Positions 1-60,094 of a stretch of DNA of 64,000 bases are shown here, piece by piece. This DNA is from Psilocybe cubensis (taxonomy: Eukaryota): contig CM038999.1 of the NCBI GenBank assembly GCA_017499595.2, positions 3,410,001-3,474,000 on the forward strand, written 5' to 3'. Position 1 is the stretch's first letter; every line of letters begins with the position of its first letter. The translations under genes were made by a program, and so were the position numbers. The notes below the pieces were generated by a model. The model ran no database searches. It saw only the letters and a program-made list of their open reading frames with translations, and was not told where the DNA came from.

Positions 1-431
1 TGTTCAAGTGGTTTAATCGCTCTAATGATCAAAATTGTCTTCACTGGTGCGGTGACCTGCAACGCAGCAACCCTCAGTTAAATGAAATCCTCAGTCTAAA
101 TGGTTAGACTCCTTGCAGTTCGTCCCTATAAATTGTATCACATCGCCTCCTACGTACTTGGATTTGTATCTAAAGTTGGCCTTGTGGTTGTTCGCTTGTT
201 GACACTTGCACACCAATTGAATCTTCTTTTTCAAAAGTAACGTTGTTTGGGCATGCCAGTGCGAAGAACAGGCTGCGCAATATCTTGAAGAAGCCGTTCT
301 CCGTTTTGTCATTATGATTTATGAAGAGACGTTTTGGATATAAAGGTGCACACTTTGATTTCTAGTTCAATATTCCTCGACCACACCTGATCGGTGTCCC
401 TTGTTTTTTGTTGGCATTTTTTGTGATTTTG

Positions 432-714
432 ATGGCCAATTTTCCTGTACCAGTGGGAGGCATAGTATACCCATCGGACTTTGTGCCTTCGCTTGTTTTC
501 ATTGCACTTTATGCCTTTTTGCTCCCTCTTATGTTATACCGAATGCTTAACAGGAGGTCTCGGACAATACTGCTGATAGCAGCGTCTTTCAGCTGCGTGG
601 AGCGGTAGGAGATGTCTTGACCTAACAGCTAGAAAATAACTGACACTCTGTAATGATCCAGAATGGCCGTATTCGTCATACGGGCAATACAGTCGCGCAA
701 TGAGGCGCAACGTT
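432..714 (+). pseudogene. 5' part of a multi-pass membrane protein gene (possibly RTA1-like) interrupted by the transposon
   Basis: ATG at 432, hydrophobic exon 1 (432-604), GT-AG intron 605-661, then exon 2 (MAVFVIRAIQSRNEAQR) cut at 714. The frame resumes at 16080 (FRVGLVRYTQVTLSMGY). Confidence 0.8.
708..714. other. Left target-site duplication CAACGTT (GCAACGTT if 8 bp)
   Basis: The same sequence follows the right TIR at 16073-16079 (16072-16079 if 8 bp). Removing the element and one copy restores the host reading frame. Confidence 0.9.
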
Positions 715-1018
715 CACATAAGACAGTTTATTTATAACGTACATTACCTAAGATTTAATAATAAGGATATTACGTGAGACACGGTGGATTTACTCCCGCT
801 ACCTAATTAGGAGATTAGCGTGATGTACGTGTGATTTATCCTGGCAAATCATAGCGTACATGACGTGCCATTTAGCACTAAATGGAGCCGCCGGGTGGCA
901 TGCGGGATCCGCGTGTCGGGCTGCACGGGAAAAACACGGGCCGCAAATGAACCGGACGGGTCCATCTACATCCCGTGTATTGCAAGCAGACGGATCCGTT
1001 TTGACCCGTGTTGTGCTG
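715..1018 (+). repeat. Left terminal inverted repeat (304 bp)
   Basis: CACATAAGACAG...TTGTGCTG is the reverse complement of 15769-16072. One mismatch was seen (895 vs 15892). Confidence 0.95.
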
Positions 1019-1159
1019 AGACGGGTCCATTCATCCACCCGCTTCTGTATTCCGACAAATATCCGCCTTGAAGAATCATACATCGGATGACCGTTAATAT
1101 ATGTAATAAGGTGTATAGATTATACTGGCAGCACATTCCTTTCCACATACCCTGATAGC

Positions 1160-2439
1160 ATGGATTATGCCTTTGAGCTAACCCAATCCCTCTCAAACTA
1201 CATGAAGGCACAAATAGCTAGTCGTCTTTGGCATGCAGAACTGCCTAATCAAATCCGGGAAAACTTCAGTGCTGAGACCATGTTTGAGTGCAATCTAGCT
1301 GTGGAGGTGATTTTGCAGGCATTTGAAAATCAAGGTATGCAATCAATAAGCTTTGAAAATTGAGATTAAATAATGTGTGAATGGCAGAATATACGACGTG
1401 GGATGCAGAAGAATATTTGACTCATCTCAGTGCACGTTGCACGGGTCAGAATTTTACCGTTGAGGCTCGCCTGAAAGACAAGTTTTCTCCAGTGCATTCC
1501 GCGTTACAGTACCAAACCCTGCCCGGAACTGTGGTCGATAGTGCAGGCAACATATTGGTGTAGTACCTGCCAGGTATTTTGTCAGAGACAAGGGTGGTGA
1601 GTTTTAGAAACAGACCAATTAATTCATATATTATGCTTTCTAAAGAGTAACAGGAGAGTGTGTGGAATTCATTACGGGATATTGAAACAATGATTCACAA
1701 GGCGGTACCTTTGGCCACAAGCTGGAGGGTCAATGACAGTTACTTTCAACATGAGCCAGGTTGGGTTCAACCTGGAAATATTAACTTCTCCCCGGCATGG
1801 TTTCAGCAAGGCCATGAGGTGAGAAACTTGTATGCTAATTATTATACTGCCTCATATTTTCCTCAGACGTCCAACCCGCTTGAGGTCTCCTTGGACTTGT
1901 GTAATCCAATTGGACAGGAGTTTATACGAGACACGACGACATCTTCGGCTTTGCTGGGAGCCATCTTGAGCATTATACATCCCGAGCAGTACCGGGCGGG
2001 AATGAAATTTCTTCAACGGCTTGCTGCGGAACCGGAGCTTGTCCATAAGGCTGAAATATTGAAGCAAATTCTCACAATTTGGAGTTCGCCCTTTGGAGTC
2101 ATGACCGTGATCAGCAACCGAGATACACCATACCATCGGGATAATGGGTCGTGCTACTCATGGTACGATTTTTTGATGCCACTTGGGAAGGGTAAACACG
2201 GACGGCTTGAGCTTCCGGGCCTTGGACTTCGGTACAAGTATGATCCCATGACCCTTGTTGCAATTACCGGCAGGTTGCTTCAACACGGCGCGGTGTGCGA
2301 TGGAGACAGGGCAGTCATAGTCTATTACATGCGTAGGACTGTATTTGAAGAGCTGGGAGTCCAAGAGGCGGGATGGTCTACTACGTACGATCTTTTTGCA
2401 AATTTACCGGCCACCAACGCTTTTGATTTTGAAATATGA
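1160..2439 (+). pseudogene. TET/JBP-family 2-oxoglutarate/Fe(II) dioxygenase with an in-frame stop
   Basis: Predicted exons 1160-1334, 1388-1596, 1654-1818 and 1867-2439. HxD motif TPYHRD (2134-2142), distal His in LLQHG, and Arg in DRAVIVYY. TAG at 1561-1563 in GNILV*YLPGIL. Linkage to a KDZ transposase matches known fungal TET/JBP genes. Confidence 0.85.
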
Positions 2440-2533
2440 TCAGTTTTTGACTTGGAAGTTGGGTTTGGGGAAGATTTTTTTATATTTCCAAACCAAAACA
2501 GTACGAAAGCTACAGCACAACCAGAATTCTCTG

Positions 2534-2802
2534 TCCCAGGGTGTTTCCGACGCGTCCGCGCTGAGCTCTTCCAAGGTTACCGGAATCATCGGACTCCGCC
2601 GTCGTATTACCGGCGGAAAAGGCATCATCCGCCTCCTCTTCGATGTCCTGTGCGAGAGGTGGGCAACTAAGATTCCTCATCCCAGGGTGTTTCCGACACG
2701 TCCTCGCTAAGCTCTTCCGAGTTACCGGAAGCATCTGACTCCTCCGTCGTATCACCGGCGGAAGACTCCTCATCCGCCTCCTCTTCAAAGTCCTGTGCGA
2801 GA
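2534..2802. repeat. Imperfect direct duplication (~123 bp x2) of the 3' end of the 4291-2667 gene
   Basis: 2534-2657 and 2680-2802 both read TCCCAGGGTGTTTCCGAC...GTCCTGTGCGAGA, with scattered substitutions and an indel. Confidence 0.85.
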
Positions 2803-4291
2803 TGCTCTAAAAACGTAGCTGGTGTAGAGGATTCAGTGGTATCGGACGTACTATCAATATCATCCTCTTCTCCCGGGAAAACAGGTCTTGACCTTGCGTT
2901 AAAAAGGAAGGCATTGCTGGTGTGTGCATTTGACGGAGGGCTGACGGAACCGGGCGTAGGCAGAGTATCTGTTGGGAGATGAATATTTGCAGTGTTGGAG
3001 GACGGCGAATGATACCAGAGTGGATGAAAAGGTAGTTCCTTGACGGCAATAAAAGAATAAAAAATGTCGTTGATGTAAAATGAAGCGACTTTGAGCTTTG
3101 AGACCTCGAAGGACCGGGCTTGAGCCGTTATAGCGCCCCAACTGTCAGGAGAAGGGTGAACGGGATGCTGAAATTTGTATTTGGCTGAAAGCCCCTTGCC
3201 GTTAGAGAACGGGAGCTCCTTAGAGTCAATCCACATCTTCTCCAATACAGAATATCTGCCCAAGGCAGCCGAAGAAGTAGTCACTGCTTTATGGGCATTC
3301 TTCATTTTGTCCGCCACATTCCGGCGCAGGTGAGCCAACTCCCTCATTACGCCCGTTAGGATAGGCTGACCGCAGCGGGGACAGTAGGGCGGTCTGTGGT
3401 CAGAAATTGCAATTGGGGATGTTTCATCCCGCGTGTTTGCAACACGGGTCGGCGGATTGGGTTTCCCCGTGGGCGGTGAAAACGCGGAGCCGTGCTTTCC
3501 CGTCAACGCGGATCCGTGCTTCCCCGAGGTGGGGACGGATGTCCGTTCAGCCGCCTTTCCCTTGCCCTTGGGATTGTTTTCTTGATTTCTTGGAGGCCCA
3601 GAGGTGGATGAACTTGCGCCCTCCTTAGCTTCTTTCCTCTGATTATTTAGCCGGAGTACCTCTTGTTGGTATTCAGGCAGAACCACCTGGTGGGAAGGAC
3701 GCAAATCAGATATAATCCACAGCAATAAAAAAACATACCTTGTTCCAAAATTCTCTTGCTTGCGATTCAACGGTAACAAAGGCAACTTGCCACTCATCGC
3801 CTTCAGCAAATCCGTCCCTCCACCAATATCCCCAGCTCTTGGTCTGATTTAAAATTTCATCATCTTCCCATGCTGACCAGCTTTGATTTAGAGATTCAAA
3901 TAGAACAGCTCGATGGTGGAGAGTTCGGTTCAAAACGGCATGTACGCTCTGATTGAGAATTTCTGATATAAAAAATGGAATATCGACTTGGAATCCATTG
4001 ACATAGCAGTATCCGAGTACTCTCAGCAGTATAGCCTATCGAGCAGTTCTCAATGCAAGATATAATAGTTCAAAATTACTGTCTTACCACCTCTAGGTCA
4101 AGCAAATACATCCATTTTTGGCGACGCACGGAGGAAACAGAGTCTCCGTTTGCAATGAACAAACGGTATCCGGCACGGATCCGTGCACCACAAATATGGA
4201 CATGAACTTTGGCCAGAGCACGTCGCTCATCATAGGTAAGGAGATGATGTTTGTCCTCGACAGGAGGTTTAAAAAGCCGCGGTAAGTGCAT
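2667..4291 (-). CDS. Transposon cargo protein of unknown function (Trp-rich helical N-terminus, CPRC motif, acidic tail)
   Basis: Three-exon model, approximately 4291-4088, 4035-3739 and 3686-2667, with GT-AG introns and no stop seen. The start codon is uncertain. Confidence 0.65.
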
Positions 4292-4335
4292 GAATTCAAC
4301 AAGATGAGATACAACAAGAATGTTCAAAGAACTGG

Positions 4336-7300
4336 TTAATCTGTAATTATAAATCTCCACACGGACGGATACTCCGGGTTAATTTGACGGAAGACCTTAT
4401 CCGCGGCCCGCCCCAGATCATTCCACATGGCAATCTGCTTTTGAGCATTTGCCCTGTGACCAACTAACCTGTCAGGAACAAAATCATGCCGTGCACGCCA
4501 TGTCTTTGCCATATACACATAAAATCTGACAGTCCATTCCATTTCCTTTTTTGTCAAAGCCAGCTCCTCTTGCCATCTATTTCTCTGAGCTCGCGCGCGG
4601 AGCCAGTTTAGCCTGAAGACTAAGAAACCTTTGAGAAAAAAATTAGAAATACAAATGGCAGTACTCACACTCATTAACGTATAATTGATTATCATTGTCC
4701 AGGCCCTGACGGGATCTCCAAATCCAACTTAGACGGTCCGAGCTTCCTCCGCAAATGTTCGGATCCGACACGGCATTACTATGCTTGCAATCATGGACTT
4801 GCAGAATGGGATATTGTTTCCGAATATTATCCTCGTCTCGCACGCCAGCAGATAAATAGATCATCTTCTGACGGTTTGTGTTGTAGAGTCGCCGGTGCAA
4901 TTTCCAGGAAGCATTCAAAAGCTTGACGCCATCCCAAGCACGAGTCCCCATATAGACGGAGTCGGCGGTCCGAACCTGATATTTATACTGCCAAGAAAGC
5001 TGGATCAAGGCTGACCGGACCGCTTCCAGACAGTCCTCTGCGTGGCCATGTCTTATTTGAAGTTCAAGTTTGCGAAGCCCTTTTAAAATGAGGTTTGTTC
5101 CCGCGTCAAGGCCGTCAAAGAAATCTTGTTTGACGGTGGAGGGAAACGGAAGCGGCTGTCGTTCCGGATCCGCGCGGGTAATGTTGACATTTCCAAGATC
5201 AGGATCGTCGTTGTCACTGACTTCATAGTCAAGTATGGGAGCGATGTCCCCTTGAATATCCTCCAAGACATCTTCGCCCATGAAGGTCATAGCGGATCGA
5301 CAGAAGGCTTCAACGCGGGTCCGCATGGAGCGACGTTTATTGACCAAGTCAAGTTTCTGCGCGGTGGAAGGATGCTTTCCGAGCTTTCTGACATGGTCCC
5401 TGAGCTCCAATCTAAAAACATGTTAAATTCTGTAGGATGCAATTGAAATAATCGTACTGCGCTTGCTCCAGTTTTAAGCCGGATGATATCCATGCTGCCT
5501 TTCCAGTAGCACCATTAGATGTAAGTTCCATATTTGAAAGATGCAATTCAATTTCTTGGCGTCCAGCAGCCGTTTTCACTTTGCTTGCCATTACCTTGCC
5601 AACAGCGTCGGCCACACCTTGTTCTCGGTCCGCTTCTGCTTTTGAAATTTCATCTTCCCAAGTGTTGATGAGCCCGGAATCTTGTTGATCCGTGATACCC
5701 CTATAAAATTGGTCTGTGATTCCAGACTGTTCCCGTGCCCGTTTGAACTTTGCAGCAATTGTTGCAGCCATATTAATGGTCTTCTTCCAGTTGGAATCCC
5801 CCATGTGGTCGTCCAAAACCTCTGCTCGATGGGCAGTGGTAGCGGAACGTGTACTCCGGGATGTGTCATTTAACACGGACCACAACGGCTCCAGGATTTC
5901 TCCGTCAATGATTCCCACACCCGGGACATAGGTGGATGCATAATTGTAAAGACATTCCGTCTTGTGCCCGTGGACGTGAAATAAACCAATTGCAAAAATC
6001 ATTTTAACAGAAGGTGGCCAATGCATTTTTGTGGACTCTGAGAGACGCCTTGCCAAGTTAACGCAATATTGACAGTTTATATCGTAGATTTCCAAATGTT
6101 TTGTGATTCCCTGTGTGTTGGTAGTTTCCCTGGCCTGAGTCAAAGACCAATCCATGTGCATCTGCTTTTCACCTTTGTCAAAATCAACAACGCTGGATGG
6201 ACAGAAGCATCCGTGCCTAGCGCAAGCGTGTGCCCCAATTCCACGTACTCTCTTACCCGGGCTGACTCTGTTTTCAGCTTTCTGGGCGTGGTAGTTATGA
6301 CATGTTTGTTCCTGATATTTTTTGACACGGAAAGTAAGCATCCGCCGTAGAAGATTTTGACACGGAGCGTAAGCATCCGCCGTGAAAGATAAATCATGGT
6401 AGATAACGCACCCGTTTATAACGTGGAGCAAGAGAAATTGCTTCCTTAATGTGCTCCTTGTAAGGGCCCGGAGCAGTCATGTATCCTTCTCCAACGCTCA
6501 ACCAAACATTGTCTCCCTCGTTTTTCTGATTGAGGTGATCTGCTTTGAAATTACCATCTGCAACATAACTACATATGTACAGATTGCTACTTGCTGTTAA
6601 TTGCAGTCACCCTTGAAGAATAACTAAAACTTGCCTATCAGCATCATCAATCCAGGTATCAGGTAGGTTTATTCCAGGCTGTGGACAGGCGGGGCAGAAT
6701 AAGGCCAACTTCCCTCTCCTATCTTCAACTTCGGGATGATCCTCGGTCCGCGTCATTTGTGGTACAGGCGGACCATCTAATCCGCCGTGTCCCAGAGACG
6801 GGTCCGTTGACATTCCGACTTCTTGAGACGGACTATCAGATCCGCCGTCAATTGGATTAGATACATTAATACCCATCCTCTCTGGTGATGAATCATGGCA
6901 ATGACGATAGTAAGGGACCACCACTTCTCTTGTATGCCCTTCTCCGTATTGTCGTCTCAGGACAAGGTCCCTGTATTCTCTACTAAGCCTTCTCAATTCA
7001 CGATAGCGGTTCAGCACCTTTTTTGGAAACGCTGGCGAAGTCAGTCTTCGCAACTTTTGGTAATACTGATAAGCCGACGTTTTGCACTCGAGGTTGTCCA
7101 TCCGAAAGTCCTCAAGGACCTCAACTGTGAACACAGTTTGAACGTTTTCAAAGCTGGCTGCAAATAATCCCATCTCCAGATACTGTAAATCGATAGACGG
7201 AAGGCGGACGGACCGGCATGTGCATGTTCGCACGGGCAGATAATGGACTCTGGAGGTGTGCACAATTGCCTTGAAAGGAATTCCATTGTTGTCTGCTGCC

Positions 7301-8219
7301 TTTGGACGAGGTTGGTCCAGATAGGTTGTATCGACTTCCTCGAATAGATCATCGTCTTCATCGTCTCCATCGTCCAGCTCAACCAAATGGGGTACCTCCG
7401 GGTCCGCCAGAAGCTGAGCCGTAAAGGATTCTTGGTCATTGCTCGCAGGAAGCGGATCCAGGTCCAATCCGTGTTCATCTTCAAAGACGGGCGAATTGTT
7501 TCCGCCGTGCCCATGACTCCCGGATGAATTGTTTCCGCCGTCCCATCCTAGGTGGCTCGGATCCGTGGGATAAGGACAACGTTTCCCATTATGACCCAAA
7601 TACAACTTGACACCCACTTCCCACAGAGCTCCCGGACGGAAATATAGACCCGTCCACTTCTCAACGCGGTGGAAAGGTGTAAATTGATGGTTTCTTCGCA
7701 GGCATTCAGAACACAAAATTCTAGAGCCAAAGCATTGGCAACATCTCCACACTCCAGACATTCCTTGACATTGCTGACACTGTCCATTCAGATCCGGATC
7801 CGGGGCTTCTCCTCCAATCATTGTTCCAAGATACACCTCTCGTTTCGGGAGCCATTCCCTCAGGTAATCATTTTGAGACTGGATAGGTAAAGTCATCCTG
7901 ATCATTCTACTGAAAACATGTTAAAACATACCTTTCCTCCCGTTCTGTCGTCATCTAGCTGTCTCAGGTTATCAAGTACCTGCTGATCAGTTAGATCTCC
8001 CGGATAATGAGGTATTTCTTCTTCCAGAATGTTGTGTTCATGGTTTTGGAAAGAGTAAGTCGTTGTTTGAGGGAGGTTTGTTGATGATGATTCTGCAGGA
8101 AGTTTGTGGATCCTCGGCCGCCCTCTCTTTCGTTTCTTGGCCCCACTAGACCAGGAGGCCTCCCGAACATTGGGAAACTCCTCATCCGATCCCCTATCAG
8201 GTACTTTCTTGAAGCCCAT
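4336..8219 (-). CDS. KDZ-family transposase with an N-terminal Cys cluster and CxC2 domain
   Basis: Six-exon model. Motifs: KRGRPR (AT-hook-like), CQQC/CCQC/CSEC..H, HRVEKWTG, CTC, CPACPQPGINLP, DGNFK, CARHGCF, GEKQ, YDINCQY, HVHGH and DGEILEPLW. One intron needs a GC donor (~6634). No stop or frameshift was seen. Confidence 0.9.
6320..6389. repeat. 35-bp tandem duplication within a transposase intron
   Basis: TTTTGACACGGAAAGTAAGCATCCGCCGTAGAAGA followed by TTTTGACACGGAGCGTAAGCATCCGCCGTGAAAGA, inside intron 6312-6411. Confidence 0.9.
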
Positions 8220-9099
8220 GGATGTTGGAAACAAAGAGTCTGACAGCCTGTGAGTGCAGATCTAAATGTAGTATAACATGTTCATTTCTGTAGATAAATT
8301 TCCCTCAATTATGCCGTTTTAAAGAGGAGAAAAATAGCTTTCATATGACTTATCTTGCAGCATATTTGGATGAGTGAGTGAAATGTTATGAACAAAACTT
8401 AATCCAGAGATGCACAAAATGGACGTGATCCCATCATAAATGTACAATATGATGCAGAACGACCCTTTCAGAACCACACTTTGGAGTGTTTTTGAAATAT
8501 CTTTTCACTGGCTGGCCCCTCATTCCTCCGGCATATATCATATGAAAGATATTTTTAATAGCTACCGAATGACATTTTTTGTAGAATGTGAATCCTTGTA
8601 TTTAAGGAGATATTCTCAATATACTAGAAAATGTGTCAAAATGAGCTCACTGGGATCATTATATTTTTTGAAAAAAAATTATGCATTTGAATACCTCTCA
8701 TGGTCTCTGAGATAACTGCCGTTTTGGGTTTCACAAGTTTTGGGTGAGAAGACGTGAATTTGCATTTTGTGTTTCTGTATCTTTACAGCCATCTGACAAG
8801 AATTTAAAACCTTGTAAAATTATCTTTATATAAAGCGCTAAATGTTTACAAAATTCCATGTTTATTGATTGAATGCAGAGGGAACTATTGCAAAATCATG
8901 AGGTCAATGTATGTGACAGCGACCAGCATGCTTTGATCATCGTGGCCGACGATGAAGCGGGATTACCTGATTGGGAAAAATATGACATCACATCATTTAT
9001 TTAGTATGATCGGAAGCTTATTTTATCTCCGTATGACGTGAGATTTGACCAGATCACACAGATACTCATCGATAAGCTACTTGTTACATCACTGCAATT

Positions 9100-11410
9100 A
9101 TGCCCACCAATGCATCCCCCGACGCGGATCCGCTTCCTTCTACCGCAAATGCCACAACCCACAACGGACCCAGAAACGGACAGACGGCGGAGGGTGACTT
9201 TCCGCCGGAAGAATCAAATATTTGGACAACAAAGGAAATGCGCGTGTTGAAAAAGCATGTACAGCCCTACAAAGATACATCAAAGTCATCCAAAGCAGAC
9301 TACATACAGAACACTGTCATACCTGAGCTGCAAGCTACATGGGATCACAGATACTCTAGACGTGCTAGGAAGGAAGATAAGCAACTACACAAAGAATGGA
9401 AGGTGAAGAAGCATGTGAGCTCGTTGTTTCTTTGAAAATTTTGTTACACACATAAACCATCACAATAGCGAATATTTAATTGGTTTAGAAACCATGCGTC
9501 AAATCGAATTGGTGTAAAATTGGAAGGATTGAACTCCCGTATAACCTTTCAGACGGTATTCCGTGAGGAGAAGTTGGCAGAGATTGACTCCGAGGTTGCG
9601 CTTCTATCAGGGAATGCTGCTCGTGGAAGTAAAGATTGGATGAAGTTTTATCAACAAGGACGTAAGCAGGTTGAGGCCAGATTGACTCAGGAGGAGCGGG
9701 ACAGGTTCATGGAGATCCTCGAGGAATGGAATAAGAAAGGTGTTTCAAAATCAATGAAGGCAAAGTGAGTCGGTGGAACTTGTTTCCGCCGTCAATCTGA
9801 CATCTGCAGGACTGCTGCCAGGCAAGGCAGAAAAATACTTTGACAAATGGAGAAACTTAAGTGGCAGAGAATGGGTATGAGGTCCATTACCTTTGAGGGG
9901 CATTATGATATTGAGGGTAAAATCGAATACTCAATGTAAGTGTTAAACACGGCATGAACAAGTTCCGCCGTGAATGCTTACGGCGGAAACTTTATCCGCC
10001 GTAAACACCCTACGGCGGATAAAGTTTCCGCCGTAAGCATTCGCGGCGGAATAATTTGGCCCGTATTAATGTTGACTGATGGGCATTGAAGGACCCAGAC
10101 AAGCGATCTAGCACTCGACGATGTCAGAATTCCTTCCTTTGGGCAACTCTTTCCATCCGAGTTGGCCGCTTTTCGCAGAGCGTTTGTTCAATACCTCGTC
10201 CACATTTCAGAAATAGAGAAGGGTGTGGCCAATCCAGCACTGCCAGATGCATCGTTTCATGAAAAATCCCTCAAGTTTAGCAGCAATGGATTTCCAATAG
10301 TACCTAGTCCTATCTATGGCTCAACTGGGAAAGAAGTCGCTTATGCACAAAAGTCAATTATTAGAATTTACATGAACAAGGTTTATGGTGTGTAATTTGT
10401 CTATGTCCTCAACAAACTTGCTAACTATGTATACAGCTTTAGCCAAGGACAGGCCTGGTTCAAGTGTTCCTTGGGATGCTCTTGAAAGGCGTTCTGCAGA
10501 AATGATTGATCCAGAGTATTGGCCAAGTTCAATCCCCGTGACGGATCCAAGCCGGCTCCGCCTGGAGTCAACCTCTGCAATTCTCAAGCTATGGAGGGAC
10601 CGTCAAGCCCAAGGAGACATCCCCTTTAAATTTTCAAAGGTTTTTGGAAATGGCTATGATATTATGGAACCTCTCTATCCGTCCAACTTGTTTGACGGCC
10701 TAGAAGCCCACCCGATACCTCCACCTCCTGCAGCAATAACCAAACGTTGCCTGAGGCAAAAAGCTATACGACTTCAAACCCAATCTTCAAGCAACTCTGA
10801 ATCATCCAATCTGTCAGAGTTTGATAATGGACGGGGCAGTCCGGCATCCGCGATGCCACGCACTACTGCCAGATTTGAAGTCACACCAGAGACGGATGAG
10901 ACTCCTACCGACGCACCTTCAAGATCTAGCGAGCCACCCTCTCTACCAAGTAGATCCAGCCCAACAATTGTCAATCCATCATCCAGCCCAACTCCAGAGG
11001 TTGAGGAGGCGCCTCCCAAGCCAGCTAGAAAGATTATGCCAAGAAAAAGAACAAAGCCATATGTCGGAACGGCGGAAATGGACGGACCCGATGAAGAGAG
11101 TTCTGTACCGGCCCCAGTTAAGCCAAAACCAACTAGAAGGATTCAACCTAGGAAAAAAACAAAGCCCTACTCAGATCCACTTGACACAGTGGAAGAAAGT
11201 GGAGTTCAGACAGGAACAACCCAAGACACGGATAATACACGGGCCGGCAGGGACGTGACTTGTGATGCCTTTGTGGAGACAGTAACAAGTCCAGATACGG
11301 ATGAAACACGGGCCCGCAGGAATGTGACTTCGGATGCCTTAGCACTTCAGGAAGCAAGTCTGCTTGTTGTAGCAGGTAAAAGACAAAGAAAAAAAACTTT
11401 GAAAGCCTAG
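9100..11410 (+). pseudogene. Transposon cargo gene, probable nuclear helical/DNA-binding protein, with an in-frame stop
   Basis: Predicted exons 9100-9414, 9469-9764, 9810-9935, 10092-10387 and 10437-11410. Contains RIFNWFRNH and a basic C-terminus (KRQRKK). TGA at 9841-9843 in RKIL*QMEK. Confidence 0.7.
9963..10051. repeat. Nested inverted repeat: 41-bp arms with a 7-nt loop, inside an intron
   Basis: 9963-10003 and 10011-10051 are reverse complements with one mismatch. They lie in intron 9936-10091. Confidence 0.95.
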
Positions 11411-11674
11411 CTGCTGAAGTAGATTCATAATACCTATTGAATGTGATGCTTTTCATTCTTATCTTGATGTTTCTCAAACATGTTTTCACACAAAATCAAA
11501 ACAGAAAGCGGGTTCATTAAAAATCATCAAGTGCTACTTTTTGGGAGAGATATAAAACAGATGAGCACATGAGAGTAAAAACTATATACAGTCCAAATAT
11601 TAAAAATTGTACAATGCAATCTATGAGACAAGGCAAAAAAGGAGACCAAAAAAAGTTACAAGATTTGAAATACA

Positions 11675-14193
11675 CTACTTTTTTTGGGCCTTGGGTTTTT
11701 TGGGTGAGCGCGATGCTTCAGCCAGAGTCGTTTCCGCCTTTCGCTTCCGTCCAGCCCTTGTCTTTGTGGCTATGTTCGACGCGGGCAGCGTGGACGCCAC
11801 AATCTCAACATCCTCCTCCACAATTTCAACCTCGTCGCTGTCCGAGGGATCAGACAACTCCGATGAGTGTCCATTCCCGGATGGCCCAGCCTTGGAGGAT
11901 GGCTTAGCCTTTGACAATGGCTTAGCCTTTGAGGATGGGCCGGCCTTTGACGATGACGATGGCGCGGCCTTTGACGATGGTGCACCCTTTGACAACGGTG
12001 CGGCCTTTGACGTCGAACTTCGAGGACGTGGAGCTGGGAGAGGGGGTGGTGGAGACAGGGAAAGGACGGGTGGTACCGGTGGGAGCGAGGGTCGGCCAGC
12101 TGGGGGGGGCGAAGGCGCTTCTGGAGTCGAACCGGGCAAGAATAGCGCTGTTGGTGGCGCAGACACGGCAGGGAAGACGGGTGCGGGTGGAGGTGGGGGT
12201 GGGGAAGGGAGGACAGGTGCTGGCGGTGGTGGAGGAGGGGAAGGGAGAATGGGTGCTGCTGGAGGTGGAGGTAGGGAAGGGAGGGGTGCTGGCGGTGGTG
12301 GTGGGCTGGGGGATTGTGGCGCAGAGGTGGGTTCACGGGTCCGCGACGGACCCGATTCTTGTTCGACCTCCGTCTTGGAGGGTTCTGCTGCCTGTTTGGG
12401 GGCGGGATTCCTTTGTTCATCCTGCTCCAGCAAAACCCCGACCACGTACTGAACGTCCTGGATCGCCTGCTTGATGTTGTTGAACATCGTGACGGAAAGC
12501 GAAGTGTTTCCTGCCACTTGTTCTATTGCCGTGGTCCACTCGGCCTTCAGCTCTTGGAAGCTGTCCTCGACGGTCTTCATCCTCTTCTCCACCGCCAAGT
12601 TTGTCTCGGCGAACGTTGCAATCCGTGCGTTTATCGCCGTCATGGACGCGGAAAGGCCATCCATCCGTTCCATCAGTCGGCCTTGTCGCTCAAACAGCTG
12701 CACAAGCAGCTCTCCCACATCCTCGGGGAACGACCCTTCCCCGGCCTTCCCCTTCGCCGGAACATCCTCTCCCTCCTCCAACTTCAACACCTCCCCGTAA
12801 CTTCCCAGCGGCGTCGAGAGGTTGAATTGCCCGGCGACAGTGTTGCGTCCCGGGTAGAAACGTCCCGGGTAGAAACTGCAGTGAATCTTGCGAGACTTGC
12901 AAGACTCGCAAGATTGGTGCTTTACGGGGACGAGAGGCTCAGTGCCTGTCTCTCCCTTGACATGGCACGGCACCTTGAATTTGGTGCATCCTGTGCACCT
13001 TTCCACCATATCCACCATCCCCTCCGGCACCTGGCGCGCTTTCTCGGATCTCGACCGCGCCTTCCTGATGGGGGAGATATTGTCCTGGTTGGCGTCCTTC
13101 TTTGCAGACCGGGTGAGCATCTTCCGGGTGGGGGTGGTAGGCGGGGCCTCTTGGTCATCGCCTTCGTCGTCCTCGTCGACGTCGGCGTCCGCGTCTTCGT
13201 CCGTGTGGCTTCCTATGATTGCTTTGCTCCTGAACTTCCCCTGCTTGGACTTCGCCAATCTTTCCAGCTTCTCCCTGTACGCTGGGTGACCAGGCATGTT
13301 GGAGGCGGTGATGTGGGGAATGATTTCCCCCTTCTTTGTCCGTGGGCCCCTGTAGTCCGCTGGAGCTAACTGAATGGTGGGCGTCTGTCACGGGTCCGTC
13401 TTCTACCGGGGGTTCGACTGCCTTGCCCTTGCCCTTCTCGGCCCGTCTCTTCTCCGTCTCCTCCTTGTTCCTCTCCTCGTCTGTCTCCTGCTCCTGCTCC
13501 TGCTCCCTCTTCCTCCTCTCCTCCGCCTTCTGCCTCTCCTGCTCCCTGGTCTTCCTCTCCTGCTCCCTCTTCCTCCTCTCCTCCTTCCTCCTCTCCTCCA
13601 CCTTCTGCTTCTCTTCCTCCCTCTTCCTCCTCTCCTCCTCCCTCTGCCTCTCCTCCTCCTCCTCCCTCTGCCTCTCCTCTTCCTCCTCCCTCTTCTTCTT
13701 CTCCTCCCTCTTCCTCCTCTCCTCCACCCTCTGCCTCTCCTCCTCCTCTTGCTCCTCCTTCTCCCTCCTCTTCTCTTGCTCTTCCTCCTCCCTCCTCTTC
13801 CTCTGTGCCTCCTGGCCTTGCTGGTATGCCTTGAAATTTGCGACTTGATGATGCAAATTTGCCCAGTCGACCTCGAACCTTCCTACCTGCTTGCCGTCCT
13901 TGCCCTGGCTGGTCTTGTATGAATACACGACAGGGCTTGCGACATAATCCACGAGGCGGAAGTTGGCCGCGTCCCTGACGTGTTCTTGACACAGTGGAAC
14001 CTATTTGGATGAATTTTTTTTGTTCAGTAAGTCTTATGCTCAAGGGATATCGATTACTCACCAAGTCCCTGTAGAGCTGCTCCAACTGAGCGTTGAACGC
14101 GCTTTCGCCATTGCGGTAGCACTCTGTAAAGGTTTTTTCCCAGTCAGCAAGGCGTTGGGCGAAGGTGGCGGTGGTGGAAGATGAAGAGGCCAT
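11675..14193 (-). CDS. Transposon cargo protein with an E/R/K-rich helix, Zn2Cys6-type cluster, coiled coil, Pro-rich region and NLS-like tail
   Basis: C-x2-C-x6-C-x18-C-x2-C-x6-C at 12997-12878. Intron ~14061-14001. The junction at ~13406-13370 needs a short 37-nt intron or else is a frameshift. Ends PKKPKAQKK. Confidence 0.75.
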
Positions 14194-14676
14194 TGGGAAA
14201 GCGTTTTTTTTGGGGGGGAAGACGCGTTAATGGGTGAGGCACGGTAGAACGTGGGGTGGTGATCGTGGTTGGAGTTAGTCTAAAAAAAGTCTAAAAAAAA
14301 GCGGTCCCGCAAAACAAAACCATACACAAACATGTACAATCTGAGTCATGTGATTTCTTCACCAGATCCAGTTTGTGCAAAAGTTGCTAAGTTCGATACA
14401 CGGGTGAATCTATTTCCGTGTCATGGAGAATCCTCGGATAGTATTGTATTCCGTGAGATATATAAACAAGCCCACCCAGTTGCACTTTCTGGACTGTATG
14501 TCCTCCTACAACTTTATTCCCACCTCTAGCAAAAATTCCCCCATTGACTACACCAGTCTCAACAATCTTACCAGGCTTCTCAAAAAACTGAAGGAACCTC
14601 CTCCCGTAAAACCTATAAAATGTAAGACTAATTGCATTAATTCAAGTAAATTTAAATTGATTTCTGAGCATCAGCA

Positions 14677-15675
14677 ATGTCTTCAAATATTAGCAACTCT
14701 AAGGAAAGCAAACGCACAGCAAGGACGGATGACCTGGCTCCGCCGCCAATGCCAGTCATTCCAGATAACCTGGCTCCACCCCCTATGCCTGTTATTCCAG
14801 CTAACCTGGCTCCTCCCCCTATGCCAGTCATTTCATCTAACCTGGCTCCGCCCCCTATGCCAGTCATCCGGAAAGACCTGGCTCCGCCGCCAATGCCAGT
14901 AATTCCAGCTAACCTGGCTCCACCCCCTATGCCTGTTATTCCAGCTAACCTGGCTCCGCCCCCTATGCCAGTCATCCGGAAAGACCTGGCTCCGCCGCCA
15001 ATGCCAGTAATTCCAGCTAGCCTGGCTCCACCCCCTATGCCAGTCATTCCACCTACCCTGGATCCTCCCCCTATGCCTGTTATTCCAGATACCCTGGATC
15101 CTCCACCTATGCCTGTCATCCGGGATGATGCGGCTCCGCCGTTGATGGCAGCACATGTTTCATACACGTCTGTCGTCGACAAAATCATTATGGACTCTCG
15201 TCCAGCTATTTCCTCTGAGAGGAAGCAAGGTCGCTATTCTCCACCCCCTGAAGCATGCCACCTGCTCCTTCAAAACCCTTATTTTTGAACCTACGGCAGG
15301 TTTGATCCCATGGGCGGCTACCCCGGTTCGCCTCCCACCCAGTCTGACATTGAGTTCGAGAATGTAACAGATCAGACGGCGTATTTTAACCCTCCTTTTC
15401 TATATGTATATACTCAGATATTACCAAGCACTAGATACTGACAACTATTTTAGAATTATACCGAGCAGCAGCTACGGGCAACATACGACCAAATAATTGA
15501 CAGTTCCGTCGGCGACAGTAGTTATGACGGAAAGGTTACAACGTTCAAGAACCTCCGGCTGCATCAGCTGCAGTCAGAGATTCTGACTTATAATGCGCTG
15601 GAGGAAATTGACGCTGGGCTGGCAGGGATTGAATCGAGTTTGGAAAAGCATTTGTATACCGGTAGAGATGAATAA
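14677..15675 (+). pseudogene. Transposon cargo gene for a proline-repeat protein, with an in-frame stop
   Basis: TGA at 15286-15288 (NPYF*TYGRFDP). The frame stays open beyond it, through an intron ~15406-15452, to TAA at 15673-15675. Confidence 0.65.
14731..15126 (+). repeat. Coding minisatellite, 11 x 36 bp (xLAPPPMPVIxx)
   Basis: Eleven 12-aa units counted in ORF 14677..15288. Confidence 0.95.
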
Positions 15676-15768
15676 ATTATTTTTGGAGCCCTTGTGCTCA
15701 TTGACTTGCAATACACCATAAATAACCCTCCCTCTCTGGAAAGACACGGGTCAAATGGGTCTGTCTGA

Positions 15769-16072
15769 CAGCACAACACGGGTCAAAACGGATCCGTCTG
15801 CTTGCAATACACGGGATGTAGATGGACCCGTCCGGTTCATTTGCGGCCCGTGTTTTTCCCGTGCAGCCCGACACGCGGATCCCGCATGCCATCCGGCGGC
15901 TCCATTTAGTGCTAAATGGCACGTCATGTACGCTATGATTTGCCAGGATAAATCACACGTACATCACGCTAATCTCCTAATTAGGTAGCGGGAGTAAATC
16001 CACCGTGTCTCACGTAATATCCTTATTATTAAATCTTAGGTAATGTACGTTATAAATAAACTGTCTTATGTG
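15769..16072 (-). repeat. Right terminal inverted repeat (304 bp)
   Basis: Reverse complement of 715-1018. Ends CTGTCTTATGTG and is followed by CAACGTT. Confidence 0.95.
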
Positions 16073-16079
16073 CAACGTT

Positions 16080-17056
16080 TCCGTGTTGGCCTTGTGAGAT
16101 ACACACAGGTCACATTATCCATGGGATACCTCGGCCTTCTGCATGACGTGATCGCCATCCTTCGATGTGTGCTGGTGAACCCGACATATGGCTCGATCAT
16201 GTACTACCAATCGCCTGCCGCGCAAAACAAGGAAGGCTTCTACGGCGCACCAGCCGCCGATGTACCCGACAGAAAACGATTACGATCTCAGTGTCGGAAG
16301 ATGATGGGCGCTTTGCAAATGCAGTTATTTATAGGCGGAATTGTGTTAGCAGCATACGGCAACTCACTGTATAGTCAAGACTTCGATGATCAGCACAAAG
16401 CAGATGTCACAGCAGTCCTTAGGCAGGTCTTCTAGTACCACACTCAAGTCACGATCTGAATGAATGTTTTGCTAATTGCAATTCATTTAATTGCAGAACC
16501 GTCAGCTCAGCGATTGCGCTGGCAGTGTCCGTGTCTGTTCTCTTGATCACTTGATGGAGTGTATCCACGTTCCGTACCAACACCAAAAGTTCTGCTGGAA
16601 TCATAGCTGCTATAGCCTGTTTGCTAGTAAGCATGTTGAAATTTACGCAAGAAATTATACGGTGCTCACCAGTTATCATAGTTGGTGGTTGCTGTTTATT
16701 GTCTGAGCGTAATGGGACACAAGACTACATCTCTTGAAGCACACATGGCGGTAAACGAAGGCAAAGAAAAGGCGACATTTTACATCTTTCACATTCTTCC
16801 AGAGTGGCTCTGCACACTCATATTTTTTACGGTTGATATTAGAAAAAAATTCGGTACTGGACCTATGGGTGATACGCGGCTGACAGACATGACGCCAGAA
16901 CAGCATAAAAAATGGGTTACCAAGCAGACCAAAAAGGAACAGAGGCGCAGGGCAAAGTTAGGGCAGTTTGTAAGCGATGGTATGGAGTCGGAGATACCAC
17001 TGCAGCAAAATTTTGGAGGTACTGGAGATGGACATTCATACCAGGTGCTACAGTGA
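16080..17056 (+). pseudogene. 3' part of the interrupted membrane-protein gene
   Basis: Predicted exons 16080-16422, 16497-16626 and 16682-17056, with hydrophobic segments and KATFYIFHILPEWL. Under a GC-AG intron model there is a TGA at 16552-16554. Confidence 0.75.
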
Positions 17057-17326
17057 TGCAAGATAGCGACTATCGATGATTGATGTGGCTCCAACTTAAT
17101 TATGCCCAGCTAGTTTCAGAGTTGCATAATTGCCATCTACTGAATAGACCCCTGATGACAATGCGAGGAACATCAGCCGAGGTGCTCGATCAAGTCTCTG
17201 ACTCACTGCGTACTCAAACGTGCATGACTTTTCATCTCATTAAAATTTATAGACGCTGGTGCACGGTATTATTCCAACCATGATGGATTGACGCTCAATA
17301 TTCGTCATAAACCACAATTTACATAC

Positions 17327-18298
17327 CTACACCTTTGTCACCTCCTCCGTATGTTCCCAAAGTTTCTGCCGCAGCTCATCATTGCCATAATATCCCGTCT
17401 TCCCAATATCCTCGCCTTTTTTACCTATCCTTGAGGTACCATTGAGAAGGCCAGACCATAGGTATTCTGCACATTGATTTTGGGTCACAGTGAACGGTTT
17501 TGCGATGAGGTTGGCCACAGGTGCAACAGCTCGTAGCCATGGCATATGTGCTGAGCTCATGATATTGGTGAGCACAGCACCAGGGAATGAATGGGAGAAA
17601 ATGATCCCAGGATTTTGCTGTTGGAAGGACTGAAAAAAGAGGCAGGTTAATTTGGGCATTTTTTAACAGGCACTGTAGGGGTTCACCTCCACCATCAAAT
17701 CGTTGTACGTTGTTGCCGCTTCGGTAGCAGTGCGGAAAGAATAACCTTTCTTCAACCCAAGATTATTAGATTCAATCTTGCCGCCGCGACCAGCAGCCAA
17801 CACGGACATAACCCTTGCATCTTCTCCCTCCTCATTTGCCTTCTTCAAAGCATAAAGTAACTCGTCAATAAATTTCCATCGAGCATAGTAATGCACTGCG
17901 AGCGTCTTGTCAATTCCCTCCAATGTCTCATCCCGTCCTGAAGTAGAGAAAAAGCCAGGACTCAGAATGAGAAAATTGATCTTGGGGTATTTCTCCAAAA
18001 TTGTCTGAGACGCTATGTGAACATTCTTCATGAGAGTCACATCGCAGTGGACAAATTTGTGGCTCCATGTCTCAGAGCCGGTGGCTTTGGGGAAATGAGA
18101 TATGATATCCTTTGCTGCGGCTTCATTGCGTCCAACAATAACGATATGAGCCTTGCCATCTCTCCACCGTGCAAATGTTTCGGCCATTCCCTGCCCAATT
18201 CCAGAGGTTCCACCAATGAACACTGCGACTGGAGTCCCAAAGAGTTTTTCCACGATGGCTGCATTGTTGTTATCCAAGGCGGCAAGTACAGGAGCCAT
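17327..18298 (-). CDS. Short-chain dehydrogenase/reductase-like NAD(P)-binding protein (copy 1)
   Basis: AVFIGGTSGIG Rossmann motif, ETLEGIDKTLAVHYYARW. Exons 18298-17687 and 17629-17327. Confidence 0.9.
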
Positions 18299-20042
18299 GT
18301 TTCTGAAAACAGCAGCCGTCGCAAAGATTTTTGGGAACCTGTTTAACCAGAGGAAAGACATGACCTTTTATCTTTACTGTATTGGCTTGGTATTTGAACT
18401 CATACTTGCCAGTGTTAACGCTGGCGCTGAAGTGCCGAGAGTGTGACGCAAGCGTCTGGTGCAACGGCCGTCGATTAAGAGCGGTACCATTGCGCTGTTC
18501 GTTTGATTGCAAAAACACAGTTAGTGCGGTTGTGAACCTTCACATTTTTTGAGAGATATTTGAGATAGGTAAAAAAGAGTCTGTGTGTTGTCCTGTATTC
18601 TGAAAGGAAGTCTGAGAGGGTCAAGTTAGGAAAGGTTAGGAATTTCCGGAGCTTACCGAGAAAACAACCTCTCCCTTGAGGTCAAGGGAGTGGCTGTGTT
18701 GCCGAGGAAGCAATCACCATAACGTGATGGCGGTGTGACCTAGTGAAAGAGGTATATAACAAAGACATTAGGACTACTTATTGAGGATCCTTAATAAATG
18801 CTACATAGTTTAGTATCCAGAATATATCAAGCTGTGTTAGATATGTCTACACTAGGTCCTTCCTCTCTTTTGAGATGTCTCCCCACAGATCAGTAATGGT
18901 GACATTAGTGTGACCATCAGTGTTTGCCGCCCCGGCAACGCAGCCACTGCCTTGGCCGTTGTTTTTCTCGGTAAGCGCCGGTGGGGGTTTACCGATCATA
19001 GGTATCTGCCCGGCAGAACCCGAGCTTGCCCTTTTCAAAATTTTCACCATAAAACCTTGGATGGATTTGACTTCAAATTATATATTCAAGCATGTAGAAA
19101 GCGTATATACACATCAGTGCCTTTAAATTTTGAGTAAGTGCAATCAATTTAGTAGAATTCGTCTGGATGTTATCTGCCACGCTCAATGTTATCCGCCAGC
19201 CGAGGTGCCGTAACACAGCCACATTTGCGCACTTGCGCATTCAATTCACGCTCGACGGGCATTCTGGTTTGGTTTTTTGAGGCTGAGGCTCTTCGGGTGA
19301 TATTATGAATTATATGTACATTACATGATACCCAGGCAAAAATTATTATAGAAACTCAGAGTACAGACAAACATATTTATGTAGACTACTTCTTGGACGC
19401 GCGTCAGCGCGAAATTTTTGAAAATTAGCCTCTCGTTTCACACGGTATTTAACAAAATTTGTATTTGTGACAATCCGTACATATTGTCAAGCACTTTCAA
19501 CTCATTTCTCTTCAAAATTTTGACAGAAATAAAGCATTGCGAGTCTCTCTCTTTTTGTCTCCATTTTTTGGTCATTTCCCGTTTGGGACACCCACTCCTA
19601 TGAACGGAAAACCCCGGTGGGTGCCCCCTGACCGTGATATATCATGTTTCTAGTAAGCCGAACGTAAGCGCCAGTGAGTGCTTCAAAGTGAAGGCTACGT
19701 TGAACAAGTTTTCGAAATGGGTTATATATCTGCTCACCATAGCGGCATGAATGCTTATAAGTATCTGGAACTTTCGTGAATTTTTATAACGAAATACCCT
19801 CTAACCGCCAACAGGATGATTGGAAAGTTAATCCTCTGTTTTGGGTCCGACAAACTGTTCCCACCTACCGTGCACTTTGCTTACAATTGTTTTATTGTTA
19901 TACAGAGTAAAAATCGACCAGATTTATTCAATAAGTAAGGTAGGTGTACAAGATAGATGAAAGACCTGGAATCCATAGAATTTGTCGATATAAAAGTAGA
20001 AATAACTCAGAGCTATGAGAAGTCCCAGCCACCATGATGCTT

Positions 20043-20834
20043 TCATTGTCGGCCGACTTCAATGAATGATACTCTTTTGGTTTCGCATTCCTCTTTGGGA
20101 AGGCGAGCAATGAGATCTTCTTTCTTCGACTGGTTTTCACCAACATTGATCACCAAGTCAGGATGAATGCCAAAGGTTTGGTTTTGAAAGATGTCGACAC
20201 TAGTCTCAAACGCAGAGTTATTGTGCATGCAGTCCAAACTGCGCATACGGGAAATTCGGCCCCTCTTTGAGTTTTTAGCTGCATGGAGGCTCCGTTTGCG
20301 AGTGCGAATGACACTGCGGGTTCGTATATCGGTAGCATCATACTGCCACTCTTCGGTGAGGCGAACTTGATTCGAGGTCACATAGGCACTATATTCCGGG
20401 CCACAGGAATTGTGCACAGAGCTCTCCGTGAGTGTATCGACATTCGCATGGGTTGATACAGATGCTAAGGATTTGGGAACTTTGACCACGTCGCTGTTGG
20501 TGTCGTCAAACAAAGTCGCTGCGGTTCTTCGCCTGCAGTCTAGAGAACGTAGAAGTTTTCGTGCACCAATGTGTCTGATGCTGTCCATTTTACCGCCTTT
20601 TTCCTGTATTTTTTCACATATAACTTGAGAGCCGTCGATATGAGCAACAGAGTTGCTGTCAACAGACGGTATCGGACAACCCTCACTGACGACCTCGCCG
20701 TTGACGATAGCAGCGCTGAGAATGTCTTTGGTCAGTAGATTGTTGGGTTGAAATGTTTTGGCTGTGGCTACTGACTGCGCTTCTTGAACACCCTTAACCA
20801 CCATATCATCCTTTTTCTGCGGGTGAGTTAGCAT
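20043..20834 (-). CDS. Hypothetical protein or exon (263-aa ORF)
   Basis: Long ATG-initiated ORF only, with no recognisable domain. Confidence 0.35.
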   Translation of the reverse strand: MLTHPQKKDDMVVKGVQEAQSVATAKTFQPNNLLTKDILSAAIVNGEVVSEGCPIPSVDSNSVAHIDGSQVICEKIQEKGGKMDSIRHIGARKLLRSLDCRRRTAATLFDDTNSDVVKVPKSLASVSTHANVDTLTESSVHNSCGPEYSAYVTSNQVRLTEEWQYDATDIRTRSVIRTRKRSLHAAKNSKRGRISRMRSLDCMHNNSAFETSVDIFQNQTFGIHPDLVINVGENQSKKEDLIARLPKEECETKRVSFIEVGRQ

Positions 20835-22875
20835 TATATTAACAGATGAATCTGGATGTGGCTTACGGAACTGTGGTAATCTGGATCATAGCGTTGGGTG
20901 TCAAGAGGATAAGTACGAGTTGGCGCCATGTTTACAGATAAACAGAAAATTGATATAAAGGAAGGATTGTTTGACTAGAAGTTCAAAATAGGCTGTAGCT
21001 GTGATCGATGCGCAAACTTGTATCGTTGGGCGAGGATAGAGTGTTTGGGTATGGGGCCGTTCATACAGAAGTGAAGTCTTCTTATATCTCGCTGTCGGGT
21101 AAATTAATGTGGGCACTTGAATTATTGTAGAGTGGCCTGTCATTGTTCAAGATTAGTGAGTGTGGCCCGACGCCAAGCAAATTCGTCGTGGTAAATTGTG
21201 GGCCTATACACTGTTGGCCCAACCAGGCTTGCTAGCCACAGAAACAATGCCCGGGCCACTAACAGCTTACACCCCGCAAAAAAGCATGCCTACCGTCACG
21301 GAAAGCATTGAGGCAGGGGGACGATTGCGTGCGTGCCATCACATGTGCCTCGTGGTTTTACACTTGCTTTGTGCATATCGGAGGGTATAAGTACCCAGAA
21401 GATGTCCAATTCCATAACATACACTCCAGCAAAGAACAACGATGTCGTCAAGTAGATCCCGAGCGAGAGCCCTCCAGCCATTGAAAGAAATCGAAGTTAC
21501 GCACCACGCTCCTGGGCTAAGAAAGGTAAGGTACCATTTTAAGAAAGCGATAGCCCTCTCAGGCTCATATTATCGCGTACAGAGCCGTTCGTCGCCTCGG
21601 ATGATCGGAACAGAGGGCCAACCAGTGGAATTCCCAAGGGAGTTGCAAGATAAAGGGACCCTTATGCTTTCGCAGCATAGTCCTGAGAGATGGCTGGGCG
21701 TGGTCATTAGACGCCAAAAGCTGGTTTTTGCCGTTGGCCAACTGATTCATGTCCACGGGGTAAGTAAATTCCGACCTCTATAAAGCATTACGACGACTCA
21801 CCGTGCTATCATAATACAGAGAACGGACACGGGAACAACTTCATGAGGAATGCCCATTTGGACAACTGACTTTGGATTCGTTTTGTTTGCTTCGTGTTTC
21901 GTTACTTGTGCTTGACTATTTTTATTACATCTATTTCAATCATCTTCATGGTGTATCCTCAAATCCGTGAACGTTCATAAGAATTAATGATTACATTCAG
22001 AACTTCTGCGAAATGTATGGATTTGATTTTGCTTGCTTGAAAGATAGGAAAAGGAGCCATGCGACTGCGGGGATCCAGATTGAATATTCAGGATGCTGAT
22101 AAAGGTCGGAAGAATACAAACAGTGGAAGAGCTCCCCGAAGTTCGTATTATTCGTTGCTTTGATCGTTCGTTTCAAGTTTTTCTTTCTACGGGTAAATGA
22201 GAAAAATTAATCCAGATGGGAGGTTAAAACTTACTTGCGATCCCCGAATGCGCACCATATTTTCAATCTGCATGATACAGTATGGGAAGGGACCACTCTC
22301 AAATTCAACTCCGTAACGACGGCTGTGCTCATTTTCAGTAGGCAGGTTTAATTTGGCCATGTAATGGACACACCGATGACAGTTTGCATCATGATCATGT
22401 TCTTTCCCCAAGCCAAAGATAGGTCTATATTGCTCTATAATGAGAATCAATTAAAATCCATCTGAGAAAACTTTTGGCTGTGGTGCCTCAAGCTGTGACC
22501 TTCTATCTTTTCTGACGGAAACAAACCTGCCTGAGTTTATCTACACATGTTCCCAATACATAGGGTAGATGTAACTTCGATGTATCAACCCAATCATTTG
22601 GCGATGTCGAGGATTAACATTGGTTAGGGGCTCAAGATTCTGTGATAGTTTCTCTGTATGATTGAGCATGATCCAAAGTTTGCTTGTTTGGAATGAAGGT
22701 GTGAAGATTGTTCAGTCGGGAGACGTCTTATGTTGCTGGGGGCGGCGGTCAAGTTCATCAAGGTCAAGTCGATGTTGTAGAAAATATTCTCTCCGGTTGT
22801 TAGTTTACAGGAGGCGTGGGAATTTATGAGGTCCCAGTTGCGGCGTCGGGTTCCAATTTCGTTCCAATAATCGTC

Positions 22876-59929: not shown

Positions 59930-60094
59930 GAACTTGAAAAAGTGTTTGAGAATTCCAAGACGAATCAAGAAGGGATTTCAAAGAAATATATAGTCAGGAC
60001 ATAAGCGTATGGCCCACCATTTCCATTGAAGGCTTGTACTTAATGGGCGATATGGAAGACAAAAGCGCAATGGCAAGCCGTGTGAAAAACCCCC
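59930..60094 (-). repeat. Inverted copy of the repeat at 31704-31917
   Basis: Reverse-complement match that lacks an ~50-nt internal segment present in the left copy. Confidence 0.85.

Follow-up and report, generated by a model that had tools for sequence, protein, structure and literature searches.

The closest described systems to the element analysed here belong to the KDZ superfamily of DNA transposons, within which Kyakuja elements have been delimited only recently (Kojima 2025, PMC12730594; statements drawn from this source and from PMC11588098 refer to passages of each). As described there, Kyakuja elements have 7-bp target site duplications (TSDs) and 5′-CA..TG-3′ tips, Zisupton and Dileera elements have 8-bp TSDs, and the consensus lengths of TET-positive Kyakuja range from 9.3 to 31 kb. 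Two Laccaria Kyakuja families are given as having no terminal inverted repeats (TIRs). In parts 8-10 of Table S1 of the same work a CACATA...CAG start is found in 7 of 21 Kyakuja consensus sequences, and the Zisupton consensus sequences of those parts start with CAGATATG or CGGATATG. The domain combination CxC4 plus SWIM is tied to Zisupton and CxC1 to the Dileera elements of Cryptococcus (PMC11588098). The stretch studied here, termed the window, comprises 64,000 nt of the Psilocybe cubensis contig CM038999.1 (assembly GCA_017499595.2, positions 3,410,001 to 3,474,000 of the forward strand), and all coordinates refer to it. Positions 715-16072 are occupied by a 15,358-bp element that very probably represents a recent insertion of a KDZ DNA transposon from the Kyakuja clade, itself one of a multicopy family, with an open transposase frame and with one of its companion genes (gene B) broken. 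The element is a further member of the recently described Kyakuja kind and not a new kind. The word "Psilocybe" occurs 0 times in the main text of Kojima 2025 (PMC12730594), and no paper was found that combines "Psilocybe" and "KDZ."

The ends of the element are formed by two TIRs of 304 nt, the left arm (715-1018, plus strand) opening with the tip CACATAAGACAGT, like published Kyakuja 5′ ends, and the right arm (15769-16072, minus strand) closing with ...ACTGTCTTATGTG. An inverted-repeat scan and a base-by-base check pair 303 of the 304 positions, with the sole mismatch at 895 (G vs A), and the similarity of the arms ends abruptly at the inner TIR edges. This pair is the single long inverted repeat in the first 20 kb of the window. 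The element tips read CACATAAG...CTTATGTG, that is CAC...GTG, and are bordered by the 7-mer CAACGTT at 708-714, the copy kept as the single one in the empty allele described below, and at 16073-16079, where it is located by the base-by-base check together with junction reads and contigs. With the ends taken as fixed by the TIR, the chance of a 7-bp match is ~6e-5. The original prediction had described a fully delimited element with 304-bp TIRs carrying one mismatch and with both a repeated 7-mer and a repeated 8-mer at its borders, and it agrees with these data on every one of those points. The inner part of the left TIR contains a cluster of four CACGGG/CCCGTG motifs (924-1010), mirrored by a cluster of five at 15745-15863. 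The motif occurs 36 times in the 64 kb, with 0.07 expected per 130 bp, and the two TIR clusters are the densest 130-bp windows; they may serve in transposase binding. No further element tips are present in the window beyond the two ends, save for a chance-level match with 2 mismatches at 43844, and an exact scan of metagenome contigs with the 34-nt tip gave 0 matches.

Parts of window positions 11080-21079 are contained in 12 public runs from four studies, and four of these runs (X1, X7, X8 and X13) were aligned to window positions 1-20000. A joint from 706 to 16072, skipping 15,365 bases, is present in three of the four: as one contig in X7 (depth 52.8, shorter side 37 letters), as one contig in X8 (depth 37.3, shorter side 149 letters) and, for X13, as 12 raw reads (5 + 7) having 10 start points (side 64). 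The empty allele is thereby spread over runs from three different studies. Because the skip of 15,365 equals 15,358 + 7, the joined sequence is the predicted GAGGCGCAACGTTTCCGTGTT, with a single CAACGTT and without a footprint. This pre-insertion sequence had been rebuilt in the original prediction, with a search for the empty allele in other strains proposed as a check, and its recovery in three of the four runs confirms it. The accompanying claim that the genes moved as one unit also holds, the empty allele showing the whole 15.4 kb present or absent as one block. In X1 there is no empty joint; single-copy contigs 1-741 and 16044-18700 cross both junctions with 0 differences, but their reach into the element, 27 and 29 letters, stays below the 31 letters required for bridging.

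In all four runs coverage is much higher within the element than over the flanks (~10-30 times the flank); in the raw reads of X13, at ≥90% likeness, the flank lies at ~25-32 and the interior at ~320-650. The high interior depth therefore makes the element one of roughly 10-30 similar copies, and the nearest transposase is in a 90%-identity cluster with 39 member sequences. A recent insertion is supported by its presence in some strains and not in others, by an empty allele free of any footprint and by the perfect TSD. The element is probably still mobile. Recency had previously been derived from the single TIR mismatch, an argument that is not borne out because each jump copies the TIRs along with the rest of the element and does not make them anew.

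By-eye comparison of 5′ ends shows that CACATAAGACAGT resembles the Kyakuja tips CACATATGACAGT, CACATAATGCAGT and CACATAATTCAGT listed in Table S1 of Kojima 2025, and against CACATATGACAGT of Kyakuja-1_LB 12 of 13 positions are identical and 1 differs. Kyakuja-1_LB from Laccaria bicolor and the TET-positive Agaricomycetes families (passages of PMC12730594) are alike to the element in the 7-bp TSD, the CA..TG tips and a size within 9.3-31 kb, as well as in an AG-type TET whose catalytic stretch resembles the printed domain by eye. The combination of a KDZ transposase with CxC2 is shared with relatives from the same genera as the Kyakuja families; the genera of the nearest transposase relatives are among those for which Kyakuja is described in Kojima 2025 (PMC12730594). 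The KDZ1 element of Cryptococcus neoformans (10,944 bp, 236-bp TIRs, shown mobility; PMC11588098) is likewise a large KDZ element with long TIRs and extra genes of unknown function, but it belongs to the Dileera clade with an 8-bp TSD and CxC1, and a TET gene goes unmentioned in the passages describing it. The Dileera features of an 8-bp TSD and, as in the Cryptococcus elements, CxC1 are not found at this locus, where Pfam identifies CxC2 and not CxC1. Zisupton (Bohne 2012, as presented in passages of Kojima 2025 and PMC11588098) is similar in its KDZ superfamily membership and its TIRs and dissimilar in its 8-bp TSD, CxC4 plus SWIM and CAGATATG tips; here CxC2 only is present, the tips differ and the TSD is best taken as 7 bp.

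The KDZ transposase gene with CxC2 lies at 4336-8219 on the minus strand and was identified by Pfam and by mapping of the 1,691-amino acid protein P0001. The gene models given here and below rest on homology and GT-AG rules. The transposase exons are 8219-7932, 7878-6611, 6568-6412, 6311-5458, 5411-4669 and 4619-4339, followed by the stop codon at 4336-4338, and encode a product of 1,197 amino acids in which all introns are GT-AG and there is no internal stop. When compared with P0001, 1,176 of the 1,183 aligned residues are identical. The Pfam KDZ match (PF18758; E 1.2e-37, 130 bits, cut-off 26.6) and the N-terminal CxC2 match (PF18803; E 2.1e-20, 73 bits, cut-off 27) are located in the minus-strand frames 5415-6476 and 6610-7920, respectively, and together with Tet_JBP (E 2e-18, see below) they bear out the earlier assignment of the locus to a KDZ transposon. 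In alignment A1 (18 proteins) residues D523 and E709/E712 are invariant and D648 is nearly so, and all are present in the transposase of the window, carried by the motifs DGNF, YDINCQY and GEILE. The positions D523, D648 and E709/E712 are the presumed catalytic triad residues. The nearest proteins are annotated in Psilocybe cubensis, names by which the host would be this species or one very closely related to it, and some relatives of the transposase have weak CxC1 matches beside CxC2. A 35-nt tandem repeat is located at 6318-6390 in transposase intron 3, where most other copies have 39 additional letters; being intronic, it leaves the frame unaffected.

Adjacent to the transposase on the same strand is gene 2 (2667-4291, minus strand), which has an acidic C terminus and maps to P0098 (492 amino acids) with 96-99% identity per exon. 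Gene 2 has no Pfam family, and its relatives form only 1 Psilocybe cubensis cluster in a homologue search within the length ranges covered. The annotation of P0001 fuses the transposase with gene 2, continuing from 4291 down to 2670, and P0098 is a separate protein. The count of six genes given in the original prediction becomes five to six; it is not firm owing to this fusion, to the putative frame of a 36-nt repeat and to the frameshift in gene B, both described below.

The catalytic-domain frame of the TET/JBP dioxygenase comprises 262 codons plus stop at 1651-2439 on the plus strand, as defined by Pfam and by alignment with CcTet. Pfam Tet_JBP is found in the frame at 1651-2436 (E 2e-18, 66.6 bits, cut-off 34.9). 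The nearest solved relative is CcTet of Coprinopsis cinerea (PDB 7vpn, 8jkk), matched at E 5e-27 (7vpn), with the HxD motif, here HRD, and the distal His aligned. Judged from its sequence, the dioxygenase is a CcTet-like TET/JBP protein of the AG type. A published proposal holds that TET oxidises methylated bases and thereby counters methylation-based silencing. A three-exon model of the gene (1160-1334, 1388-1596 and 1654-2439) was dropped on account of an internal stop; the upstream exons would lie within ~1160-1650. Across 1078-2516 this copy differs from ~2/3 of the family reads at ≥37 listed positions (at least 37), and the family may have two sub-types in this region, although other regions may differ equally, the differences listed being the best-supported ones.

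Gene A (9100-11410, plus strand) was delineated by mapping its open frames to P0100 and is collinear with an Agrocybe pediades protein. Its conserved domain, at ~10406-10700, is putatively GTF2I-like and has 100 distant relatives at E ≤0.001. Pfam GTF2I (PF02946) is matched by 20 of 99 aligned gene A family members at E up to 0.1, the best being 3.3e-6. The domain model has a pLDDT of 86, and in a fold comparison with 48,161 chains GTF2I domains are the top two (Z 6.7, with rmsd 2.8 over 78 aligned residues, and Z 4.9), the next chain being at 2.1. Foldseek against the PDB gave E 2.5-3.5 only, with no match at E ≤0.001, and the ESM Atlas searches with gene A and gene B gave best scores of 0.83 and 0.86, below the lead level of 0.9, and no family. 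An intron of gene A contains a palindrome (9963-10051, from the inverted-repeat scan) whose 41-nt arms are separated by 7 nt, and at this place other copies have a 63-nt deletion (joints 9962>10026 and 9980>10044).

Gene B (11675-14193, minus strand) maps to P0095 and is composed of a Glu/Arg/Lys-rich stretch, six cysteines arranged as CX2CX6C-X18-CX2CX6C, a long predicted helix and a proline-rich tail. In the comparison with P0095, 13 residues are unmatched and the frame changes at 13377/13378, exactly where most family reads and contigs have 41 extra letters; a 41-nt deletion has therefore put gene B out of frame in this copy. The six cysteines are invariant in the family alignment A5, which has further shared blocks, and their spacing is like that of the Zn(2)-Cys(6) cluster except for a middle gap of 13-18 residues. 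The structural model of gene B is weak (mean pLDDT 64.8, pTM 0.25), and the homologue search in the length ranges searched found its relatives in 3 Psilocybe cubensis clusters only. Between gene B and the right TIR, a repeat scan located a 36-nt tandem repeat of ~10.8 units (14655-15285), open on both strands and a putative coding frame, whose copy number differs among family members (joints that "go back 72" and "go back 270").

A scan of metagenome contigs with the gene A alignment gave 33 loci, many of them overlapping, which form 11 clusters. Among the gene A loci with ≥2,300 nt upstream, 10 of 11 have, like the window itself, an upstream KDZ N terminus encoded on the other strand. In 10 loci a profile search detected a gene B relative that lies downstream and on the minus strand; CX2CX6C-X13-18-CX2CX6C is present in 8 of the 10, and all three genes (KDZ, A and B) are in the order of the window in 4 of the 11 clusters. 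Within the 33 loci no TET or gene 2 relatives were found, though the contigs do not extend far enough on that side for a judgement. In four other lineages genes A and B are placed beside KDZ in an unchanged order and orientation, and we read them as genes of the element, not captured host genes; from their domain types they are probably DNA-binding helpers, which is a guess. Two of the metagenome sequences, L019 and L020, are copies of a related element and are 94.6-98.4% alike; L019 has a 512-nt insertion at 1228-1739 relative to L020, near the end of the gene A match. We tentatively suggest that Kyakuja elements, far from being a transposase with captured cargo, are conserved multi-gene units in which a divergent GTF2I-like gene and a convergent six-cysteine coiled-coil gene encode DNA-binding partners needed for end recognition or escape from silencing. 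The GTF2I repeat is known from animal TFII-I proteins, and the multi-gene arrangement, if true, would put it in fungal transposon proteins. No paper was found pairing "GTF2I" with "KDZ," or "GTF2I" with "transposon" and "Basidiomycota," and Iyer 2014 may already describe these neighbours. As conserved companions, genes A and B are candidates for a part in transposition itself or in the escape from silencing proposed for TET.

Several points count against the locus being a recently inserted Kyakuja copy with the gene content described. The occupied state is seen in X1 only, which is possibly the window's own source and which enters the element by <31 letters, and the two alleles, empty and occupied, might in principle stem from loss in place of gain. 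For this copy taken alone the empty site accommodates 7 bp as well as 8 bp, the putative placement in Kyakuja draws on the features of the ends and on the types of CxC2 domain and of TET, and the 304-nt near-perfect TIRs are unlike the two Laccaria Kyakuja families. Regarding the companion genes, L020 has enough upstream DNA yet lacks a KDZ frame adjoining gene A, the gene A domain of the window itself matches no Pfam family, GTF2I included, and gene B is not a member of the Zn(2)-Cys(6) cluster PF00172 (E 0.16, 12.6 bits, cut-off 21). With gene B frameshifted and the TET 5′ exons unmodelled, this copy may also depend on others. The first of these points would fit an assembly artefact in which a repeat has been misplaced into a single-copy locus: the family is multicopy, and the short entry of the X1 junction contigs comes from what are possibly the data behind the window. 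Such an artefact is nevertheless highly improbable, as X1 has no empty joint and its single-copy flanks show 0 differences up to both junctions, where the matching 7-bp TSD would not be created by a misjoin. That the "empty" strains once had the element and lost it, through precise excision or through recombination of the short direct repeats, is a little less improbable and still unlikely. Cut-and-paste elements do excise, and the change may have run in either direction; however, an empty allele with exactly one TSD copy and no footprint has the usual look of a never-occupied site, it occurs in runs of three different studies, and the TSD is perfect (7/7). Compatible with the recent insertion of a Kyakuja copy, and a realistic though less than even prospect, is that the copy is defective and was moved by proteins from other copies. 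The absence from gene B of the 41 nt found in most family reads, with its shifted frame, and the TET 5′ exons that could not be modelled point in this direction, and the ~10-30 other copies could supply the proteins; the transposase frame, on the other hand, is complete and 99% identical to its annotated homologue, gene B may be dispensable, and the deletion could postdate the insertion.

The remaining alternative is a Zisupton- or Dileera-like element at 715-16071 with the 8-bp TSD GCAACGTT and one unpaired terminal base, the original prediction having allowed a TSD of either 7 or 8 bp. The 8-mer repeat itself is real; GCAACGTT is present at 707-714 and 16072-16079 because the left TSD copy is preceded by a G and the element likewise ends in a G. 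The skip of 15,365 fits 15,357 + 8 as well as 15,358 + 7, and 8-bp TSDs are made by Zisupton, Dileera and Cryptococcus KDZ1 (passages of Kojima 2025 and PMC11588098). An 8-bp TSD would, however, leave CA...GT tips and a TIR minus its last pair, whereas the Kyakuja CA..TG tips go with 7 bp (Kojima 2025). L019 and L020 share the end ...ACTGTCATATGTG (TATGTG) through its final G and directly after it diverge into the unrelated flanks GGATAGT... and CTGAAGC..., so that the terminal G belongs to the element and the TSD here is best taken as 7 bp. The element also has CxC2 in place of the CxC4 plus SWIM of Zisupton or the CxC1 of the Cryptococcus Dileera elements, and its tip differs from the Zisupton consensus starts given in Table S1. 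On these grounds the Zisupton- or Dileera-like alternative is very unlikely, and 7 bp is favoured by the Kyakuja description in Kojima 2025, the CAC...GTG tips and the L019/L020 ends. The palindromic AACGTT core pointed out in the original prediction is present in this TSD and is not common to the flanks GGATAGT and CTGAAGC; with three flanks and no shared motif (n = 3), the palindrome is probably due to chance.

For a recently inserted Kyakuja copy, a cut-and-paste chemistry would proceed as follows. The transposase, with its N-terminal zinc-binding CxC2 and its catalytic KDZ domain, would recognise the 304-bp inverted ends with their CACGGG/CCCGTG clusters and would cut at the CAC...GTG tips. 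The 15,358-bp unit would then be inserted whole at cuts staggered by 7 bp, the repair of which would give rise to the CAACGTT duplication, and the carried TET gene may counter methylation-based silencing. The locus provides an exact before/after insertion pair, with both ends, the TSD and an untouched empty allele in other strains. In combination with an open transposase and many near-identical copies, this comes about as close as sequence by itself can to showing current activity, and the TIRs of this copy indicate that Kyakuja can have long inverted ends.

In the rebuilt empty site (657-714 joined to 16080-16432) an open frame of 137 codons with an ATG at 663 spans the insertion point, and a host gene may thus have been interrupted by the element close to its 5′ end; the right part of this frame has no Pfam family. 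Further to the right, the flank at 18646-20000 enters another repeat, where the depth in the contig runs rises from ~50 to 450-1000; numerous loose ends are located at 18646, 19284 and 19613, accompanied by some opposite-strand joints. Two adh_short frames (17441-18367 and 29988-31158, E ~1e-10) are inverted relative to each other and lie inside inverted repeats that are 71-76% alike, which looks like an old inverted gene duplication. More inverted repeats occur at 30950-31917 and 59930-63910 (341 nt at 82% and 109 nt at 94%), and Pkinase_fungal frames are located at 35224-37037 (minus strand) and 61245-61997 (plus strand); together these repeats and frames suggest a larger inverted segmental duplication. 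On the minus strand at 50091-52850, an open frame of 920 codons that matches no Pfam family lies in a stretch with 59% G+C, well above the 44-49% that is usual in the window.

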